DNA of 64,000 nucleotides from Candidatus Bathyarchaeota archaeon. GTDB taxonomy: Archaea; Thermoproteota; Bathyarchaeia; Bathyarchaeales; Bathyarchaeaceae. The position numbers were made by a program, and so were the translations under genes. Each line of letters begins with the position of its first letter. Position 1 is the first letter of the stretch. Location of the stretch: positions 637,243-701,242 of the forward strand of contig CAVYYP010000013.1 in the NCBI GenBank assembly GCA_963772765.1. Direction: 5' to 3'. Below the pieces are notes generated by a model, which saw only the letters and a list, made by a program, of their open reading frames with translations, was not told the DNA's origin and made no database searches. Positions 29,721 to 43,765 of this stretch are shown piece by piece.

Positions 29721-32327
29721 ATGAGAAAAACACGAACACTTCAACTCTGCCTAATTATTACAGCAACCATGATGCTACTTGTATCAAATTTTGTTCCAAG
29801 TGCACAACTAAAGGTTAATGCACAGAACGTCACTGGCACTTCGGCTGAAAGCAACCAGAGTCTGCTACAATATGAGTGGCCACAATTTGGAGGCAATGCG
29901 TCTACTTCACGGTTTTCGCAAGGTCCTGCGCCTTCAACTTCTAAAATTGTTTGGAAAGCCAACATAACAGACATTAGAAGCTTCATTGCAGCGTTTAATG
30001 GCATGGTTTTTGCGTGTTCGAACACTTCAGTTATTGCTCTTAACCCTGAAAATGGGGCAACCATTTGGGAAACTGAAGTTCCGATGAATGGAACATGGCC
30101 AATAGCATACAAAATCGACAGCACTCACATGCTTGTGGAAGGCACCTGCCTAGAAACACAGACTGGAGATATTTTATGGTCAAGTTCTTCGTTTTCTGCA
30201 GACACAGGAAACTTCAACCTTAACGTTTACAGTCCAGAAGAGAAAATGTTCTACGTCAAAAAACTCTCATATGTTGAAGCATGGGACTTTTCTGACCCCT
30301 CAACACCTCCAACACAGGTATGGAAAACGTATGTTCCCGGCGGCGGCAGGGTTGGCTCGGGAATAACTTATGGAGACGGCAAAGTGTTTCCCGGGTCTTT
30401 TGAAGACCTTCAGATGGCAATAGACGCCAAGACGGGCGACGTTCTTTGGACTACCCGCACAAAAACACCGATGATTTTCTCTGGCGCATACTCTGACGGA
30501 AAGTTTGTTCGCGGAGGCACAGACGACAACACAATGTACTGTTTCAACGCCACAAACGGTGACATCCTTTGGACTTACAACCCAGGAACAGACGGCTACT
30601 TCACTATCGGATGTGCAATCGCATATGGCATGGTCTATGAGCCAAACAAGGACGGAAAAATTTACGCCATAGACATAGACACGGGAGAGCTGGTTTGGTC
30701 ATATCAGGGACCAGGAACGATGCTATTTCCTGGAATGCCTACCGTTGCAGAAGGAAAGGTTTACGTCACGAGTGGTCAGGATGCGACTTTTGGTGCTCAT
30801 CCTACTGCTTCAGAGTTTGTGTGCTTGGATGCCTACACTGGCGATGTCATCTGGAAGCTTGCTGTTGAAGCGTTTGCGCCCAGAGAATCTATAGCCATTG
30901 CCTATGGAATGATGTTTATGATTCCAGGTGATGTAACCACAGCTGTTGATTCGTATTCTGGGAGCGAGTATACTACTAAGGGTCAGGTTTGGGCTTTCAG
31001 TGATGATTTGTCTCAGATTAATGGTTCTTGGTCAATGTTCAGAAGTGATGCAGAACGTTCCTCTATTGGCAACTTAGGTCCAGCAAACCTGACGATGGAA
31101 TGGAAATATACCACTGAGGGGGCTGTGATGTCTTCGCCTAGTGTTGTGGATGGCGTTTTGTATGCTGCTTCACAGGACAAGAACGTTTACGCAGTTAATG
31201 CGTGGAGCGGCAGTTTAATTTGGAAATTTGAGACAGAGGGCACTATCGAGTCTTCGCCAGCGGTTGTGGATGGAAAGGTTTTCATTGGAAGCGACGACGG
31301 CTACGTTTATTGTTTAGACTCTCTTAGTGGTGGTCTTGTTTGGAGACGATTTGTCCATGGCGACTTGCCGATTACTTCGGGAGCCGCTGTTATGCTTCGT
31401 TCTTCGCCTGCGGTTGTTGATAATATAGTGTATGTTGGGTCTGTTGACGGAAACCTGTACGCTCTTGACGCGGATGACGGCGACGTGTTGTGGACGTTTG
31501 ATACGACAGGAATAATTACGTCGTCTCCGGCAGTGGCGGATGGTGCCGTTTATGTTACTTCCGAAGAACCAAACGAAGGCGCCCTGTACAAGTTAGATGC
31601 ATATGATGGAAATTTGGTATGGAAGTTGCCTCTTGCGTATGAGCATCAGTTTACTGGCGGAACAGACATGCAGGGTACTCCCACGGTGGCGGATGGTATG
31701 GTGTTTGTTTCCACTAACATGCGGACATATTACGGTGTTAATACGGTTTCTGGAGATGTTGTTTGGACGTTTACGAACCCTCAGGCAACAGAATTCATTG
31801 TCTCTGCTCCGATTTATGTTGAGGGCAAGCTGTATGTTATTGACAAGTTTGACATAGCATGCCTGAATGCTTCTACAGGAAAGAAAATTTGGGGTTCATA
31901 TTCCGGAGATGAGCTTTATGTTTCGCCATCTTATGCTGACAACAGAATATACGTGGTCACCAGCCAACGTCACATCTTCATCATAGACGCTACGACGGGA
32001 GACAACTTTTTGGCATACACAACACCGTCTGCAAGCTGGTCCTCCCCAACCCCAATCAACGGAAGACTATACATAGGAAACAACGACTGGAACATTTACT
32101 GCCTAACAACAGCAGTCAGCTCCAATCCATCCGCCAGCACCGACGAGCCATCACCAAACGACGATGAACCCACACAAACCCCTGATGAGCCTTCAGCACC
32201 AACTGACGGAGAACCAGACGCTGAGCCCACAGAAGACAACTATCTTGTGCTAATTGGAGTCCTTGTAGTGATAGCTGTGGTTGTAGTTGCAGCTTATGCT
32301 TACTTTAGGCTGCGTAAACACAAATAA
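29721..32327 (+). CDS. PQQ-like beta-propeller repeat surface protein (signal peptide, C-terminal TM anchor)
   Basis: 868 aa and intact. Many repeats of the pattern G.(V/I)Y..S.DG.(V/L)YA(L/V)(D/N)...G..(L/I)W. A P/E/D-rich linker is followed by LVLIGVLVVIAVVVVAAYAYFRLRKHK. Confidence 0.85.
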   Translation: MRKTRTLQLCLIITATMMLLVSNFVPSAQLKVNAQNVTGTSAESNQSLLQYEWPQFGGNASTSRFSQGPAPSTSKIVWKANITDIRSFIAAFNGMVFACSNTSVIALNPENGATIWETEVPMNGTWPIAYKIDSTHMLVEGTCLETQTGDILWSSSSFSADTGNFNLNVYSPEEKMFYVKKLSYVEAWDFSDPSTPPTQVWKTYVPGGGRVGSGITYGDGKVFPGSFEDLQMAIDAKTGDVLWTTRTKTPMIFSGAYSDGKFVRGGTDDNTMYCFNATNGDILWTYNPGTDGYFTIGCAIAYGMVYEPNKDGKIYAIDIDTGELVWSYQGPGTMLFPGMPTVAEGKVYVTSGQDATFGAHPTASEFVCLDAYTGDVIWKLAVEAFAPRESIAIAYGMMFMIPGDVTTAVDSYSGSEYTTKGQVWAFSDDLSQINGSWSMFRSDAERSSIGNLGPANLTMEWKYTTEGAVMSSPSVVDGVLYAASQDKNVYAVNAWSGSLIWKFETEGTIESSPAVVDGKVFIGSDDGYVYCLDSLSGGLVWRRFVHGDLPITSGAAVMLRSSPAVVDNIVYVGSVDGNLYALDADDGDVLWTFDTTGIITSSPAVADGAVYVTSEEPNEGALYKLDAYDGNLVWKLPLAYEHQFTGGTDMQGTPTVADGMVFVSTNMRTYYGVNTVSGDVVWTFTNPQATEFIVSAPIYVEGKLYVIDKFDIACLNASTGKKIWGSYSGDELYVSPSYADNRIYVVTSQRHIFIIDATTGDNFLAYTTPSASWSSPTPINGRLYIGNNDWNIYCLTTAVSSNPSASTDEPSPNDDEPTQTPDEPSAPTDGEPDAEPTEDNYLVLIGVLVVIAVVVVAAYAYFRLRKHK

Positions 32328-35425: not shown

Positions 35426-35472
35426 TGGTGGGCCGGACCGGATTTGAACCGGCGACCTTCTGCACGTCAAGC
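35426..35472. repeat. attL (partial tRNA-Val copy)
   Basis: TGGTGGGCCGGACCGGATTTGAACCGGCGACCTTCTGCACGTCAAGC is identical to 40491-40537. Confidence 0.85.
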
Positions 35473-36313
35473 TTCAGGTTCAAAGAGACAGTCTTTAGAT
35501 ATTAACAACGAAGAACTGTTGGAATTGTTCGATGAATTTCAAGTTGTGGATTTACAGAGAGCAGAAAAAACAGCTAAAGAGAAATTTACTACATTCGCAA
35601 ATTCCTGAATGAAGTCAAATTAAACTCAGTTGAGGTTAGGACTGAGGATGTCCGACATTACCTTAGAGATTTAGACGTTTCCAAACATGTTTACAAGAAC
35701 TATTTTTTTAGGAGCATTGAAAGTATTCTTCCGTGATTTCTTGCATCGTTCAGAGTTGGTTGATTCTTTCAAGTTTCCCCGACTCAAAGTTTAAGCCTAA
35801 AATTGTTCGAACAAAAAATGAGTTGAAAATTTTCTATGATTTAGTCAAATCCCAATGTTGGTAAGGCATTGTTCTTGGCATACGCTTTAAGTGGTTCAAG
35901 CAAAGAATGAAGTTTTTGGGCTTAACCAAAGGTAAGATAATACTTCCGAAAAACGGTTAATTGTTCCTACTGGTCACAATGGAATTACAAAAAATAGCTA
36001 TGTCAGTTTTTATAACAGTGAGACAGAACGAGGTATCCAATAAGATTGAGTTAGGGGGAGATAGATTATTCCAGCATCAGCGACAGACAATATAAGAAAA
36101 TTTGGAAGGTGGCTCAAAGAAGAAACGGGTGTTCATATAACTGCTCAGAAGCTTAGAGAGTGGTTCTGTTGTGAAATGGGAAACTTAGGAGTTAGTGACC
36201 GTTACATTGATGCTTTTTCGTGGAACAAAACACGAAAATCAGTTTTGGCGAGGCATTATACAAATTACAATCCTGAAAAACTAAAGAAAATTTATGAAAA
36301 AGCAAAATCTTGA
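35473..36313 (+). pseudogene. tyrosine recombinase Int(C) fragment, heavily degraded
   Basis: Reading on from the att repeat gives ..ASGSKRQSLDINNEELLELFDEFQVVDLQRAEKTAKEKFTTFAN. Shifted frames then give FLNEVKLNSVEVRTEDVRHYLRDL... and the C-terminal ITAQKLREWFCCEMGNLGVSDRYIDAF..RKSVLARHYTNYNPEKLKKIYEKA. Many stops. Confidence 0.65.
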
Positions 36314-36395
36314 GAAGTCCTGAAATAATTTTAATGAACCACAAGTCATAATCATACGCTAACCGGTCTCTATCTTTTTATTTTCAAGGTAATAT

Positions 36396-37348
36396 TCAAA
36401 AATATTCTCCTAATAGTTCATGTCTTTTTTCTATAGAACTTTTTGCAACTGCAGCTTGTGAAATGTAATACTGAAAATCCATTAGTTTTCGATATTTTCT
36501 GTCATAATCTAAGCCTTTTCCAGATTCAATTCGCAATTTATTAATAAATTTGATGTAAAACTCAGCAAAAATCTGTAATTTTTCTATTTCTTTCTTAATA
36601 ATTAACTCTTCAAAGAAAAGATAAGCTGAAACTATTGAAGCCCTATTTCGAAAATCCTCAGCATTTTCTCCAAAATATTTGTTCATATAATTTAGTGTCA
36701 CTTTAATTCTCTCAATCTCCACTCCAAATTTTTTCAAATTCGCATATTGTTCAAAGAAGCGTTTCAAGTCTCTAAATCTTGCAGAATAAAAACTATCTTG
36801 TAGCGAACGGTAAAAAGAATTTATGCATATTTGGGCGATAAACAGTTTCTTTTGCAAATCTCCTCTCAGGTATATTCACTTTAATGAAAAATGGGTGTTC
36901 TTTTCCAACTTTAAAAACAAAATCTCTAATATCTCCTTTCATTGCATGTAAGTTTAAAATTGCATTTAGGGGAGAACCTAATTGTAACCTTTGAAAAGAG
37001 AAGTCTCAAATCATCCTCTTCAGCTTTGGTTATAATAGCAACTGTGAATTTATACTCGAAAAGGTCATTTCGCTCATTTTCTGGCAATTGGTCGATGTTT
37101 CTTCCATCTAAAAGAGTTAATTCACCACTAAAAAATTCAATTATCGAAACAATACGTTGTTGTCCATCAACACAGTCATAGGTTTCAGAATCATCTGCTT
37201 TATACAAATACAGCTTAGGTATATCCAGTCCCCTTTGCATGGAATCTATTAGTTTTTTCTTCAAAGTTGATTCCAAACTGTTGGTTCTCTTTGATAATCT
37301 GGATATTGTATTAGGTTCCTCTTGGAATACAATTTTTTTGCGGACCAT
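36396..37348 (-). pseudogene. DUF262 (ParB-like nuclease superfamily) protein with two apparent frameshifts
   Basis: The DGQQR motif is present (YDCVDGQQRIVSIIEFF). After ...EDDLRLLF the conserved continuation QRLQLGSPLNA...GKEHPFF lies in another frame, with the shift at a T4 run on the minus strand. ORF 36396-36857 supplies the helical C-terminus. Confidence 0.65.
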
Positions 37349-37383
37349 TCTTTTATTGTTCTAATCATTTCTAATTGCCAAAT

Positions 37384-38412
37384 CTAATCGCCTAGGAACA
37401 TGTCAACATAGTTCAAATTCATTTTATCAATCGGAATGTGCTTATCTAGGAAAACTTGAATGTATCTTTTTAACCAATCTTCATAAACATTTTTGGATTT
37501 ATACTCTACTAAATCTTGACAGTTAGGTAATTCTCCTAGGACTTTCACTTCTTTAAGGAAACCATTATTTTTTCTAATTTCTTCTCCACCTTTGTGGCTT
37601 TTTATTAATTCAATTTGATAAGGTCTTTCAGCTCTTAATTGAGTCTTAAAAAGTAAGGACAATAACCCCCAATCATTTTGACTAAGAGAACAACCTACAA
37701 TTCTTAGTTTATCACAATCAAGTAGCTCGAATGCTTTGCCCCATAACATATTAAAAGGATATCTTTCTCGTTGTTTTTCCACACCCGGAGGAATCCACAA
37801 CATTTCACTTCTTTCCTTTGCTTGATTTTCATCTATTTTTGTTGACGGTATGCCACTCTTCCAATTGAAAGACCCATGCAATTTAATTAATGGCAAACAA
37901 TCATAAATCAGATTATATGTTCCCGATTCGCAATTACATTTAATACCATAATTTACCCCATTTAAAACGTTCTGACAAGCTTGGTCTAATAAACTATCAT
38001 AGTTGACAGTAATTAATCCTGTAAGTTGTTCTATTTTTTTAACTTCTTCAATTTCATGTATTTGTAGTAATGTCATTGTAAGTATGGGGTCAATAGTTTT
38101 ATCGTCCAGTAATAATTTATCTTCTATTATGTCACAGAATATACTTTTGAGCTTACTTGCTGCATCTGAATATCTTTGTATGCTCATAGATTCTAATAGA
38201 CTTATGTAAATTTCAATATCTGTTATATCATCTGTTGCAATGTTGCCTAAAACATCTGCCAAATCACGGTCCTCAATTGCCTTTTCTACAACTAACTCAG
38301 ACACAGCCCGCAAAGAAAGAGATTGTTCTATGCCCGAGTAAGAGGCTTCAGCCATAGTTGAACCAGCACCAAATAGGTAAACAATTCTTTCGGGGGAGGC
38401 ATAAATAGGCAC
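37384..38412 (-). CDS. SIR2-like (SIR2_2-type) protein, candidate NADase effector
   Basis: Sirtuin-fold motifs appear in order: LFGAGST (GAGxS), TVNYDSLLD (TxNxD), LIKLHGSFNW (catalytic HG), then RIVGCSLSQNDW. 342 aa and intact. Confidence 0.7.
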   Translation of the reverse strand: MPIYASPERIVYLFGAGSTMAEASYSGIEQSLSLRAVSELVVEKAIEDRDLADVLGNIATDDITDIEIYISLLESMSIQRYSDAASKLKSIFCDIIEDKLLLDDKTIDPILTMTLLQIHEIEEVKKIEQLTGLITVNYDSLLDQACQNVLNGVNYGIKCNCESGTYNLIYDCLPLIKLHGSFNWKSGIPSTKIDENQAKERSEMLWIPPGVEKQRERYPFNMLWGKAFELLDCDKLRIVGCSLSQNDWGLLSLLFKTQLRAERPYQIELIKSHKGGEEIRKNNGFLKEVKVLGELPNCQDLVEYKSKNVYEDWLKRYIQVFLDKHIPIDKMNLNYVDMFLGD

Positions 38413-38596: not shown

Positions 38597-39352
38597 ATGG
38601 ATTATTCAGAGTTTGTAAAAAAGCTCAAGGATATTGAAAAAATGGGATTCATCAAATCCCATCGGAAAGGTTCAACAGGAATAGGAAAAACATTAGAAGA
38701 CCTTCTTGGAATAGCTGAAAATAATATTCCAGGTCCTGACTTTTCAAAACATGAACTAAAAAGTGCAAGAAAAAATTCTAGTTCTATGCTAACTCTATTC
38801 ACTAAAGCTCCTCTTCAAAAAGGAGCTAATAATCAATTACTTGAAAAATGTGGTTATCAACAGCGTAAAGTCCCCATAGATTATCAACAATTTGACTCTT
38901 TTCTAGGAACAAAAAAAGAAGGTGAAAATAATATTCCTTTGTATGAAAAAGAATTGCATTCAACAGTTGACGCTATTAAGCCCAACGCTCAAAATTTGAT
39001 ATTAAGAATAGTGGGTAACAAATTGATTATTGGAAACGATAAGGACGTGGATGCATATTATGAAAATAACATTTTGAAAGAAACCTTTGAAAAAAAATAT
39101 AATAAACTTGTGTATGTTTTGGCTGAAAATAAGAAAGAGAAGGGTGAGGAATTTTTTTGGTTTAATGAGGCATATCATCTTGATGGTTTTAGTTTCGAAA
39201 GATTTTCAACATTAGTTGATGAAGGTTTATTGAAAGTTGACCTACGTATGGGACATTATTCGAATGGTCGACCTCATGACCATGGAACAGGTTTCAGAAT
39301 AATGCCTAGATATTTACCTAGATGTTTTGAAAAAATTGAGACCATATTATGA
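38597..39352 (+). CDS. MvaI/BcnI-like type II restriction endonuclease
   Basis: GFIKSHRKGSTGIGKTLEDLLGIAENNIPGPDFSKHELKSARKNSSSMLTLFTKAP matches my recollection of the MvaI_BcnI family N-terminus. It is convergent with a methyltransferase. Confidence 0.6.
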   Translation: MDYSEFVKKLKDIEKMGFIKSHRKGSTGIGKTLEDLLGIAENNIPGPDFSKHELKSARKNSSSMLTLFTKAPLQKGANNQLLEKCGYQQRKVPIDYQQFDSFLGTKKEGENNIPLYEKELHSTVDAIKPNAQNLILRIVGNKLIIGNDKDVDAYYENNILKETFEKKYNKLVYVLAENKKEKGEEFFWFNEAYHLDGFSFERFSTLVDEGLLKVDLRMGHYSNGRPHDHGTGFRIMPRYLPRCFEKIETIL

Positions 39353-39417
39353 TTATTTTGGCGGTCTCCAGAAATCGAGAAATATATTCCATTGTTGCTC
39401 CTAAAGAGATGAAATTA

Positions 39418-40269
39418 TTAGGCCAACCAAATATTCCAACTCGATTTACAAGATTCCTTTTTATCCCAAATGAAAGTATTTCTGAATTCAAATCCCGCTT
39501 TCTCTAACGCATCTATTACATAAGCATGTGTCACATACCTTTTATTTTTCCACCAAACATCATTTATATTAACTATACAATGTGCTTTTTCTTTCATTAG
39601 AGGCAAGATTCCTGCGTAAATTTCTTCTAAGGTTTCTGCATATTGTTGGTAATTCATTATACCTAAATCTCTAGGGTCTTTGGAATACTGCTGAACTTTC
39701 AAATATTGACCGTTCTTACGTTCATCTCCTCTGATGCTTTTATTCAATCTTTTTCGATTTAGCATATTAGCATAAGGTGGAGAAGTTATACACAACGAAA
39801 CGGTGTTCTCTTCTAGATATTCAGGAATGTTTTTTGCATCATCAACAATGCCTAATTGTTGAGTTTCAATTCCAAATCTAGTTTGGCTAAGTCTTTCTTT
39901 TGCGACCTCTATGTAACCTTCATGCAAATCAAAACCTAAAGCATTTCTTTTCAAATCTTGAGCAGCAATTAATGTAGTTCCAATTCCAACAAATGGGTCC
40001 AAAACAAGTTCTCCCTCATGGGTAAGAACTTCAATAAAATGAGCAGGAAGAGAAATAGGGTAAACAGCGGGATGAACATTCTTATCTCGAACATCTCTCC
40101 CAGTGTAATAAAATTCTTTGATTGTAACCATTCCTTTAACCCATTCTTTTGCAGTAATACAACTAATATGATTAGTTTGACAATCACAAGTTTTTTTATG
40201 GGCAATTGCTAGCTTCTTGTTTTCCACTTTTAGAGCCTTCTTAAACAGTCTTTCCAAATTAACTATCAC
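39418..40269 (-). CDS. DNA methyltransferase (SPPY-type, probably N4-cytosine)
   Basis: Motif I is LDPFVGIGTTLIAAQ and motif IV is ITSPPYANM. 283 aa. Confidence 0.8.
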   Translation of the reverse strand: MIVNLERLFKKALKVENKKLAIAHKKTCDCQTNHISCITAKEWVKGMVTIKEFYYTGRDVRDKNVHPAVYPISLPAHFIEVLTHEGELVLDPFVGIGTTLIAAQDLKRNALGFDLHEGYIEVAKERLSQTRFGIETQQLGIVDDAKNIPEYLEENTVSLCITSPPYANMLNRKRLNKSIRGDERKNGQYLKVQQYSKDPRDLGIMNYQQYAETLEEIYAGILPLMKEKAHCIVNINDVWWKNKRYVTHAYVIDALEKAGFEFRNTFIWDKKESCKSSWNIWLA

Positions 40270-40352: not shown

Positions 40353-40490
40353 ATGATTTTTCAAATTTTTCCTCTGAAAGAAAGCTTAGTTTGGGCGCTT
40401 AAACGGGAAATAAAGGCTTTAGAACAAATGAATCATGAATCAGAGGATAAATCTGAGGTTCTTAGTGAAGCTTCTTCTAAAGAAGGTTCA
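40353..40490 (+). pseudogene. Int(N) fragment of the split integrase
   Basis: The ORF MIFQIFPLKESLVWALKREIKALEQMNHESEDKSEVLSEASSKEGS runs in frame into the att repeat (WWAGPDLNRRPSARQ). The same att translation precedes Int(C) at 35426. Confidence 0.6.
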
Positions 40491-40568
40491 TGGTGGGCCG
40501 GACCGGATTTGAACCGGCGACCTTCTGCACGTCAAGCAGATGTCCTAACCGAACTAGACGACCGGCCC
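40491..40568 (-). tRNA. tRNA-Val (anticodon GAC), with encoded CCA
   Basis: Sequence: GGGCCGGTCGTCTAGTTCGGTTAGGACATCTGCTTGACGTGCAGAAGGTCGCCGGTTCAAATCCGGTCCGGCCCACCA. A cloverleaf folds by hand. The anticodon loop is TTGACGT. Confidence 0.9.
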
Positions 40569-40712: not shown

Positions 40713-40789
40713 GGGCGGATAGATCAGCCTGGAAGATCGCAACGTTGGCATCGTTGAGGCCGCGGGTTCAAATCCCGCTCCGTCCACCA
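40713..40789 (+). tRNA. tRNA-Ala (anticodon GGC), with encoded CCA
   Basis: Sequence: GGGCGGATAGATCAGCCTGGAAGATCGCAACGTTGGCATCGTTGAGGCCGCGGGTTCAAATCCCGCTCCGTCCACCA. The G3:U70 pair is present. The anticodon loop is TTGGCAT. Confidence 0.9.
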
Positions 40790-41149: not shown

Positions 41150-43765
41150 TTGAATTTTTGTAAAAAAAATAAAATAATATCCATCATCTTTGTTATTCTA
41201 CTACTTACTTCTGCTTCACTTCTAATCACTACTGCTTCAGCACAAAGTACTGATATACCTGTAAGTGGACCTCTACCCGCTGGTGTTACACCAGACGTAA
41301 TTGAATCCACACGAGCCTTTCTCAGTTTCCGACCAAATCCTGTAGGCGTTGGCCAAGTAATATTAGTTAACTTGTGGCTAAACCCTGCAACACACGCAAG
41401 CAGATACCACCCAGACTACGAAGTCATAATCACCCACCCAGATGGAACCGAAGAATCAATATTTCTTGACTCTTACCAAGCAGACACAACTGCATGGTTT
41501 GAATACCAAGTAAACGAAGTTGGAACCTGGACACTTCAATTCGTATTCCATGGAACATACTTCCCAGGAGGAGACGTTCCCGGAGGCTTTGGAGAAGCAG
41601 CAACAGTTACGCTTGGTTCTGTGTTCCTATGAACCTAGTTCTACTGAAAAACAAGAACTAACAGTGCAAGAAGACATAGTGTATTCATGGCCAGAAGCAG
41701 AACTTCCAACAGACTACTGGACACGACCCATATCTCTTGAGAAAAGAGAATGGTGGTCAATAGCAGGAGCATACCCCGGCACAGGCTACTACGGAGGAGG
41801 CCCAATCTGGGACGAATTCTATCCTAACACAAATCCACGATGGAGCTTCGATACAACTTCCACCCATGGGTGGAAGGACCAGAAACATCACACATCGTAT
41901 GGAAACGACAAGACGGATTAGCAGGGCTAATCGGCGGATACGCATACTACTACGGCACAACCACTAACGTAGGAACTCCGTCCATAATATATGCTGGAAG
42001 ATGCTACCAAACAGTTACCACGATCGTAGACGGAGAATCGACAGATGTATTCCAATGTTATGACCTCCGTACTGGAGAAGTCTATTGGGAAATCTATCCA
42101 CTACCAACAGTCACTACGACTTCAATGTTTGGACCAATGACCTCAAGTGTAATACCCGACATCGTCGCATATGTACCACCAGGACCAGGATCAGTTCCTG
42201 GAGCAGTTGCACAAAACACGTATCTGTTGAACTGCTGGCAATAGCAGGCGGCAGACTGATGAAATTCGATCCAGCAACAGGCGCAATAACATGCAACGTT
42301 TCCATTTCACCATTGACCGGAAGCGGAGGCTACTACTACACCAACCAGTACGTAATTGACATACAGGATCTTGGAGCAAGCGCTGGTGAAGAACGCTATC
42401 GTTTGATCAACTGGACAACTGCAGGATCAAGCAGCAATTTCGCTAGCAGGGTAGTTAGCAACACCACTTATGGCAGAGCTAGCTGGACTGAAACCATATA
42501 CGATGATTCAGATGAACAGGGTTATAGTTTCCACACATATCCTCATATTGACTTCAATACTGGAATAGGCGTTACTGTAGCTGCATATGGATGGAATGGT
42601 CCAACAGCCGTTTATGAACGGTTCAAACTGCAAGCGTACGATCTATACACTGGAGAAACACTCTGGGATTTGCAGTTGATGAACCAATATACAGCAGATC
42701 ATGTTACGTTGCTGACCATGGAAAAATCGCGATACTGACACAGAATGGCTACTTCTACGCATACAACCTTGAAGACGGAAGCTTGGCTTGGAAGAGCGAA
42801 ACCATGGACTATCCTTGGGCATCAGCTGGTTTTGGAGCTTACGCTATAGAATCGGCCTATGGCATGCTTTTCAGGCAATCCTACAATGGGGTTTATGCAT
42901 TTGACTGGGACGATGGAAGTATAGTCTGGCAATACGAAGCACCCGCACTTGCAGTTTATGAGTCTCCATACGTTGATGCTGACGGTAAAGGCGTTTATCC
43001 GTTCAATGGCGGTGCAATGGTTGCTCACCGGAAAGATGTACAGTATACAATACTGAGCACACCGCAAGCTGGCCAATGACCCGCGGTTGGGGTCTTCACT
43101 GCATCGACATTTTCACTGGTGAACTCATATGGAAGATAGGAAACCCAATGACATACGGCGCTGTTGCAGACGGTTACTTGACTGCAGGTAACCCTTGGGA
43201 CGGATACATGTATGTTTTCGGCAAAGGACAAACTGAAACAACTGTGACTGCACCAGACCTAGCAGTGCCAAAAGGCACAGACATGATGATAAAAGGTACA
43301 GGTACTTAATGCATCTCCTGCCCAAAAGGGTACACCTTGTGTTTCAGCAGATTCAATGTCCCTACAGATGGAGTATTTACATCTTCAAAGACCAATAGAC
43401 GGAATATGGGGCAACGAAACAATAGAAGGCGTTCAAGTAAAATTAACTGCAATGAGTGATTCTGGCCAGTATGTCGATATCGGAACCACAACTACCAGTG
43501 GCTATTATGGAACTTTTGGTATGACATGGACTCCTGCAGAAGAGGTACTTATGAAATCGTTGCATCTTTCGAGGGTTCTGAAGCATATGGTAGTTCATCT
43601 GCATCGACATTCGTTAAAGTCGGTCCAGCATCTTCAGCGTCAGTAATAATAGAACCAGAGACAGAAACACCACTTATCAGCATAGACCTTGCAATCGTCA
43701 TCGCTGTCCTAGCAGCATGCATCATCGGCGCAGTAGCATACATAGGACTAAGACGACGAAAATAA
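41150..43765 (+). pseudogene. large beta-propeller-type surface protein, paralog 2 (at least 7 frame breaks)
   Basis: Eight overlapping or adjacent ORFs (41150-41632 through 43526-43765) are colinear with 24469-27070. It has a signal-like N-terminus and the C-terminal anchor LAIVIAVLAACIIGAVAYIGLRRRK. Confidence 0.7.

Follow-up and report, generated by a model that had tools for sequence, protein, structure and literature searches.

A gene for a SIR2-like protein is followed directly by a gene of the DUF262 family in the genome of a Candidatus Bathyarchaeota archaeon (GenBank assembly GCA_963772765.1, contig CAVYYP010000013.1, positions 637,243 to 701,242; this stretch of 64,000 nucleotides (nt) is referred to as the window, and coordinates are counted from its first letter). 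Why do these two genes stand together, and do they belong to a defence system of their own? We found that the pair is conserved across many genomes and that it is linked to a third gene, a DNA methylase of the N4-cytosine type. In the window the three genes are carried, together with a restriction endonuclease gene, by a small element integrated at a tRNA gene.

The SIR2-like protein was used to look for relatives. A word-indexed search returned 411 of them at E≤1e-3, and among 1.84 billion proteins there are 305 representatives; the SIR2 subfamily is therefore small and discrete. For six homologues (35–57% identity) the next gene downstream was inspected, and in all six it encodes a GmrSD_N protein of 335–383 amino acids (aa). 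A genome scan yielded 80 loci, nearly all in metagenome-assembled genomes and together covering more than 20 phylum-level lineages, and a set of 84 non-redundant loci was surveyed. In this survey genes were called naively as the longest open reading frames (ORFs) and assigned with home-made hidden Markov models; start sites and gap lengths are approximate. The DUF262 partner is located directly downstream of the SIR2 gene in 80 of the 84 loci, stop and start codons often overlap, and the gaps are mostly −4 to +20 nt. Of the other four, one seems to have an insertion, one has suffered a loss and the rest lie at contig ends. When the look-ups were begun from DUF262, SIR2 followed by DUF262 was again the order found, and pairwise identities among the SIR2 proteins correlate with those among the DUF262 proteins (identity matrices, r=0.95). 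The initial annotation had set conservation of the gene neighbourhood beforehand as one of two tests that could refute its proposal of a two-gene defence module; judged by these numbers the pair is conserved and co-evolving and co-occurs far beyond chance.

Fusions of SIR2 with DUF262 were not seen among the homology matches, all of which were about 460 aa or shorter. Relatives of the module were not found in plasmid collections, phage collections or IMG/VR, so there is no evidence of a phage- or plasmid-borne module. The family is found almost wholly in uncultured lineages (for example Acidobacteriota, Chloroflexota, Nitrospirota, Bathyarchaeia and the candidate phyla radiation (CPR)/DPANN), and for this reason it may have been overlooked. 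About 8% of the loci other than the window are disrupted (L014, 6007–7022; L031, L047, L082 and L089, in the DUF262 region; L036, 8263–12480; L079). In these the SIR2 gene is split once, the DUF262 gene is split four times, an insertion of about 3 kb occurs once and DUF262 is absent once; either gene of the pair may be the one that is lost.

The only conserved neighbour of the pair is a DNA methylase gene. It lies at most 1.5 kb away in 71 of the 84 loci, in 50 of them upstream in the orientation of the pair and in 16 downstream and convergent, and the upstream methylase often overlaps the start of the SIR2 gene. The Pfam family N6_N4_Mtase is the immediate neighbour at 42 of 82 upstream and at 13 of 78 downstream positions. 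Besides methylase models and nucleases of the XhoI family nothing recurs beyond two or three loci; in 10 further loci an XhoI-family nuclease stands next to the pair and the methylase lies on its far side. Minimal loci consisting of methylase, SIR2 and DUF262 and flanked by housekeeping genes were also found (L008, L091 and L093). Motif IV of the methylases reads SPPY in 69 of 74 proteins, a bias that spans several subfamilies. The motif SPP[YF] marks N4-cytosine amino-methylases, and (D/N)PP[YFW] marks N6-adenine ones. We conclude that a third gene, for a methylase of the N4-cytosine type, is genuinely tied to the pair.

Some neighbourhoods are richer in genes. The XhoI-family nuclease (PF04555) is placed between the SPPY methylase and the pair in L035 (5197–5931), L058 (5210–5950), L092 (6040–6630) and about seven other loci; these four-gene loci are of the Acidobacteriota and Verrucomicrobiota type and are analogous to the archaeal arrangement with an MvaI/BcnI-family nuclease. 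One locus contains a nuclease of the BsobI family. Genes of the kind usual in defence islands adjoin related loci, namely those for an SRA-HNH type IV enzyme, a STAND ATPase (AAA_16-TPR), a type I HsdM, and Vsr together with a C5 methylase (L001, 4163–4933, minus strand; L003, 1–2868, plus strand; L082, 10411–10866, plus strand; L016, 8034–10416). Integrases likewise occur among the neighbours.

What can be said about the two proteins of the pair? The SIR2-like gene of the window (37384–38412, minus strand) is an intact ORF of 342 aa, and its product is predicted to be an NAD+-consuming effector. As the initial annotation had noted, it contains the sequences GAGS (residues 15–18), TVNYD (135–139) and LHGS (178–181). 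In an alignment of 38 SIR2-like homologues no variation occurs at G15, G17, N137, G180, F182, N183 and W184, and the conservation of H179 is 90% or more; the Rossmann G-x-G, the catalytic Asn (N-x-D) and the His (LHG) of the defence SIR2 NADase superfamily are thus all present. The Pfam family SIR2_2 (PF13289) matches the window protein with E=0.011 and 16.2 bits, below the gathering threshold of 24.5, and a precomputed PF13289 match is present on many of its homologues. PADLOC returned weak matches to a generic SIR2 model (1e-6), to Aga_SIR2 and to Dsr2. Searched as a single sequence against solved structures, the protein gave no direct match; the profile search alone succeeded. The family profile matched PsSIR2 with E=4e-6, the NYD and LHGS motifs being aligned, and weakly the KomC NADase.

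An AlphaFold2 model of the protein (predicted local distance difference test score, pLDDT, 87; predicted template modelling score 0.89) has its nearest solved folds in the SIR2 chains of SIR2-HerA/Nezha, with template modelling (TM) scores of 0.50–0.57 and E-values down to 1e-9; SPARSA and ThsA are the next-best fold matches. The resemblance to SIRT3 and SIRT5 amounts to TM scores of 0.32–0.37 only, compared with about 0.55 for SIR2-HerA. It thus stands apart from the housekeeping deacetylases; clustering with them was the outcome that the initial annotation had named as speaking against its view, and the fold and profile evidence led us to reject such an identity. Motifs and model together point to a putative NADase.

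The DUF262 gene begins with an ATG at position 37368, 15 nt past the stop codon of the SIR2 gene and in the same direction, so that the pair is indeed co-directional and near-abutting. Three-frame translation, tblastn and an alignment of homologues delimit it to 36359–37368 (minus strand) and not to 36396–37348 as originally annotated; it is a gene remnant for a ParB-type NTPase with a helical C-terminal domain, similar to NsnA. Its longest fragment bears the sequence CVDGQQRIV and matches Pfam GmrSD_N with E=5e-10, in agreement with the family assignment and the DGQQR motif reported before. The PADLOC model NsnA matches the repaired window protein with 1e-19 and is the best model for the DUF262 partners in general (1e-18 to 1e-25, profile positions 57–379 of 385, that is, full length). 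D68, G69, Q71 and R72 of the DGQQR motif and the motif QR..W are invariant in the DUF262 alignment. Intact homologues comprise 330–390 aa and possess an all-helical C-terminal domain. The model of one homologue, P0122, which is 67% identical to the repaired window protein, has a pLDDT of 92.6 and consists of an N-terminal α/β domain resembling ParB and sulfiredoxin (Srx) and an all-helical C-terminal domain; its fold matches are the ParB, Noc and KorB CTPases, BrxU, SspE and sulfiredoxin. A search with the DUF262 family profile likewise matched BrxU. A DUF1524/HNH domain or another nuclease domain was not found in the DUF262 partner or its intact homologues with Pfam, PADLOC or the predicted model.

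Considering these observations we propose, with a probability of roughly one half, that methylase, SIR2 and DUF262 form a widespread, so far unnamed module resembling a restriction–modification (R-M) system, but with a sensor/effector pair in the place of the nuclease and with an abortive response. The methylase of the N4-cytosine type would mark the host DNA, probably with N4-methylcytosine (m4C). The DUF262 protein would be bound to DNA as a ParB-type NTPase with a helical DNA-binding domain and would read the status of the DNA. On encountering DNA without the mark it would switch on the SIR2 protein, which would destroy NAD+ and thereby abort the infection. In the window the module, accompanied by an MvaI/BcnI-type R-M pair, is carried on a 5-kb element in an archaeal tRNA-Val gene. 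This mechanism is proposed because of the anatomy of the genes and because of the published DUF262 sensors (PMC12065111, PMC10952713) and SIR2 effectors; DUF262 has been treated as a sensor of DNA modification that activates an attached effector (PMC12065111, PMC10952713). The defence role suggested by the initial annotation gains support from the co-occurrence of the genes and from the defence-type SIR2 fold, while the function itself, including NADase activity, sensing by DUF262 and m4C as self mark, is one that we infer. More tentatively, the module could represent a distinct unnamed immune class, in which an m4C self mark is read by a ParB-type NTPase, NAD+ depletion leading to suicide or dormancy takes the place of cleavage, and the genes have spread horizontally over more than 20 bacterial and archaeal phyla.

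In the window the module resides in an islet whose limits could be determined. A tRNA-Val(GAC) gene was identified with ARAGORN at 40491–40568 (minus strand), and a distal attachment (att) repeat at 35426–35472 is an exact copy of 47 nt of the 3' half of this tRNA gene, the partner copy being 40491–40537. These exact direct repeats set the bounds of a 5.07-kb insertion. The N-terminal part of an integrase (an ORF at 40353–40537, plus strand) reads into the tRNA gene and att site; the C-terminal part of an SSV-type integrase (35426–36340, plus strand, recognised by three-frame translation) reads out of the distal repeat and has decayed into several frames. Both parts have the peptide WWAGPDLNRRPSARQA in common. 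Because one ORF runs into the tRNA gene and the fragments run out of the distal repeat, the integrase gene was split by the integration. The match of the decayed fragments to PF16795, the family of archaeal SSV-type phage integrases, is weak (E=1e-3). A tRNA-Ala(GGC) gene (40713–40789, plus strand) is located 144 nt from the tRNA-Val gene in divergent orientation; only the Val gene has been used for integration.

The cargo of the islet consists of the SIR2-DUF262 pair, an MvaI/BcnI-family nuclease and an N6_N4 methylase, so the tRNA-integrated islet with an adjoining R-M pair described in the initial annotation is borne out. The nuclease gene (38597–39352, plus strand) encodes a type II restriction endonuclease of 251 aa (Pfam PF15515, E=1.2e-49) and is intact. 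The methylase gene (39318–40269, minus strand; Pfam PF01555, E=1.4e-27; PADLOC MTase_II, 1e-99) codes for a protein of the N6_N4 family with SPPY as motif IV, that is, of the N4-cytosine type. A PF15515 nuclease beside an amino-methylase with SPPY is the composition of an MvaI/BcnI-type R-M pair, and m4C chemistry is predicted from the motif. The MvaI and BcnI systems are m4C systems.

Is the copy in the window functional? The initial annotation had noticed two apparent frameshifts in the DUF262 gene and had considered the module inactive or mis-assembled. The frameshifting and this judgement stand; the count does not, as four corrections of 1 nt are required. Intact homologues aligned with tblastn to the remnant in four collinear segments and three frames, and comparison with the family alignment revealed a further shift at the extreme end. 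For the evaluation of these sites a second assembly of the same element was available, L090 (ENA ERZ25039500, 8.9 kb). The first frameshift (37253–37266) is a loss of 1 nt beside an A6 run and is common to this sister contig. The second (36994–36997) is a T4 run that reads T3 in L090, where the frame is intact. At the third (36837–36841) one additional nucleotide stands between TAT and GCC; it is also present in L090, with a different base (C in the window, G in L090). The fourth (36398–36402), a T5 run common to L090, was recognised from the translation and the family alignment and gives rise to an apparent stop at 36396, which is therefore an artefact. The ancestral stop codon is the TAG at 36359–36361, and reading through to it restores the C-terminus of the family, EYFEYYLENKKIETG. 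All four sites are given for the gene on the minus strand. The methylase gene is frameshifted as well, near its 3' end at the A-run 39457–39461 (A5); L090 has A4 at this site and encodes an intact protein of 316 aa, taken as the ancestral length, which tblastn splits over two frames of the window. The nuclease gene is intact in both assemblies. If the methylase frameshift is real, an active nuclease would be without its methylase.

As assembled, the window copy is non-functional, with four frameshifts in DUF262, one in the methylase and a decayed integrase. We considered two reasons for this. First, the genes could really have decayed; second, the frameshifts could be sequencing or assembly errors and the module could be intact in the organism. 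We lean towards real decay, and errors, which would concern the window copy only, remain a serious possibility that we rate below even. Neither the second DUF262 frameshift nor that of the methylase is present in L090, each coming down to a difference in homopolymer length, and the first and fourth frameshifts lie at or beside the A6 and T5 runs. The remnant contains no additional in-frame stop codons and is 60–67% identical to its homologues, much like SIR2. On the other hand, the first, third and fourth frameshifts occur in both assemblies, and the SIR2 and nuclease genes (1.8 kb together) carry no frameshift compared with four in the 1 kb of DUF262. Real decay is also favoured by the integrase and by the broken copies of the module in other genomes.

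The two assemblies are 96.3% identical overall, although this identity is very uneven. Six of the 45 insertions or deletions between them lie in homopolymers, and the ratio of transitions to transversions is 0.88. Between 36837–37269 of the window and 7112–7543 of L090 the differences in DUF262 form clusters of 4–9 nt at or near the frameshift sites. Complement-type swaps (C to G, TTT to AAA) account for many of these, and the L090 version is nearer to the family consensus; a consensus of mixed strains, a basecalling artefact or multi-nucleotide mutation may have caused them. An exact 31-nt probe for another copy of the islet in JGI metagenomes gave no match. Outside the islet, the region 41150–43765 (plus strand) is broken into eight overlapping ORF fragments and looks like a single large surface protein gene with about seven frameshifts. 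This reading is based on weak matches to PQQ_2 and Big_3_5, a C-terminal transmembrane segment and its resemblance to an intact gene for 868 aa at 29721–32327. The region is also fragmented in L090, where it is 10–19% divergent, and this shattering of a big neighbour gene in both assemblies is a further point for errors as the cause.

Several observations weigh against the proposed module. The non-functional state of the window copy is one of them, and the origin of nearly all members from uncultured genomes is another. The identity matrix of either protein of the pair correlates with that of the methylase with r=0.43, a co-inheritance much looser than that within the pair, and in a few loci the methylase is absent or of another class (C5 or Dam-like). 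A classical nuclease is present in the window and in about 13 other loci; next to it SIR2-DUF262 could be an add-on and not the restriction arm. The assignment of m4C is a prediction from SPPY by rule of thumb. SIR2 enzymes are also capable of ADP-ribosylation. Finally, the characterised DUF262 proteins (GmrSD, BrxU, SspE and probably Dazbog) respond to modified and not to unmodified DNA (PMC12065111, PMC10952713).

This last point, the response of all characterised DUF262 sensors to modified DNA, speaks for an alternative in which SIR2-DUF262 would be abortive in a type IV-like, modification-dependent manner: DUF262 would recognise foreign modified DNA and trigger SIR2. The methylases would then belong to separate R-M systems and would be adjacent through clustering in islands or shared mobility, a situation that fits the weak co-evolution of methylase and pair and the several loci in which the pair adjoins a complete R-M system (methylase and a nuclease of the XhoI or MvaI/BcnI family). 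However, in most loci the methylase directly adjoins the pair, with stop and start codons often overlapping or near-abutting, and the three-gene loci stand between housekeeping genes. Moreover, if the sensor responded to methylated DNA, a methylase in the same operon would carry the risk of self-attack, and the SPPY bias over unrelated methylase subfamilies is hard to explain by clustering alone. We consider this alternative unlikely. Still less probable is a direct action of the pair on DNA or protein in place of NAD+ depletion, in which it would be the true restriction arm of the methylase and either DUF262 would cleave or nick DNA by its ParB fold or SIR2 would be an ADP-ribosyltransferase: the PADLOC 'type II REase' (restriction endonuclease) model PDLC03418 does match DUF262 weakly (1e-5 to 1e-11), and Sir2 and ParB domains in R-M loci have been listed as possible nucleases or ADP-ribosylating toxins (PMC3506569), but the match is confined to the ParB-like N-terminal region, DUF262 has no recognisable nuclease domain and the solved relatives of the SIR2-like protein are all NADases.

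If the proposed module of methylase, SIR2 and DUF262 is real, epigenetic self-marking would be coupled to abortive infection in a new manner: the methylase would define what counts as self, a ParB-like NTPase would do the reading and a sirtuin NADase the enforcing. R-M methylases, DUF262 sensors and SIR2 effectors would be joined in a combination that is neither in PADLOC 2.0 nor in the literature searched, and the DUF262 protein would possibly be the first example of a protein that reads the N4-methylcytosine status of DNA. The window is of value mainly as a pointer to the family, given that its own copy is degraded or mis-assembled.

How does the module compare with known systems? The initial annotation did not recognise the pair as a named system, and this impression holds: PADLOC 2.0 contains no model naming the pair and gives moderate NsnA-like and weak generic SIR2 matches only, NCBIfam gave nothing useful, and no publication pairing SIR2 with DUF262 was found in the part of the literature that was searched, in which reviews mention the domains separately. 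Older comparative papers note Sir2 and ParB domains in R-M loci in general terms (PMC3506569, PMC3632139). Membership in Thoeris, DSR, SIR2-HerA, SPARSA, GmrSD/BrxU/SspE, Menshen, Dazbog or PD-T4-2 was rejected, as a defining component is missing in each case.

With the SIR2 NADase systems (SIR2-HerA/Nezha, Thoeris ThsA, DSR1/2, SPARSA and Kongming KomC) the SIR2-like protein shares a standalone SIR2_2-type domain, the GAG Rossmann motif and the catalytic Asn and His, and it would also share the logic of a sensor-activated, NAD+-depleting effector. The sequence similarity is remote, however (E about 1e-6), and in place of a nearby HerA, TIR, SLOG, prokaryotic Argonaute (pAgo) or large sensor domain there is a DUF262 partner and a linked methylase. 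A HerA/FtsK-type ATPase as in SIR2-HerA was not found in the window or among the neighbours in the 84 loci. Concerning Thoeris, the 342-aa protein has no SLOG domain, a TIR neighbour was not found, and PADLOC gave no Ths match.

The DUF262 partner has the architecture of NsnA from Menshen (NsnABC), in which ParB-DUF262 is followed by a helical 'ParBDB' domain (PMC12065111). Unlike Menshen, the module has neither the NsnB ABC-ATPase nor the NsnC inPIN-nuclease; its effector is SIR2 and its locus includes a methylase. Genes resembling NsnB or NsnC were not found downstream of the pair, where the neighbours at the 78 positions are methylases or unrelated singletons. Dazbog and PD-T4-2 are small systems with DUF262 and without DUF1524, and a reading of DNA methylation has been ascribed to their sensor (PMC10952713). 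With PADLOC no match to DzbA, DzbB or PD-T4-2_B was obtained, and the match to PD-T4-2_A was weak (1e-6 to 1e-11).

GmrSD, BrxU and SspE have in common with the module the DGQQR-type ParB NTPase and, if DUF262 acts as proposed, a sensor of DNA status that is coupled to an effector. In SspABCD-SspE the modification system of the host is co-encoded, as is the methylase here. These systems differ in that the module has a separate SIR2 effector and no DUF1524 HNH nuclease, and in that it contains a methylase, whereas SspABCD-SspE relies on phosphorothioation. Classical type II R-M systems, composed of an MvaI/BcnI- or XhoI-family nuclease and an m4C methylase, resemble the module in the tightly linked, co-directional or convergent methylase gene; they differ from it in that most of the loci are without a recognisable nuclease and contain the SIR2-DUF262 pair in its place.

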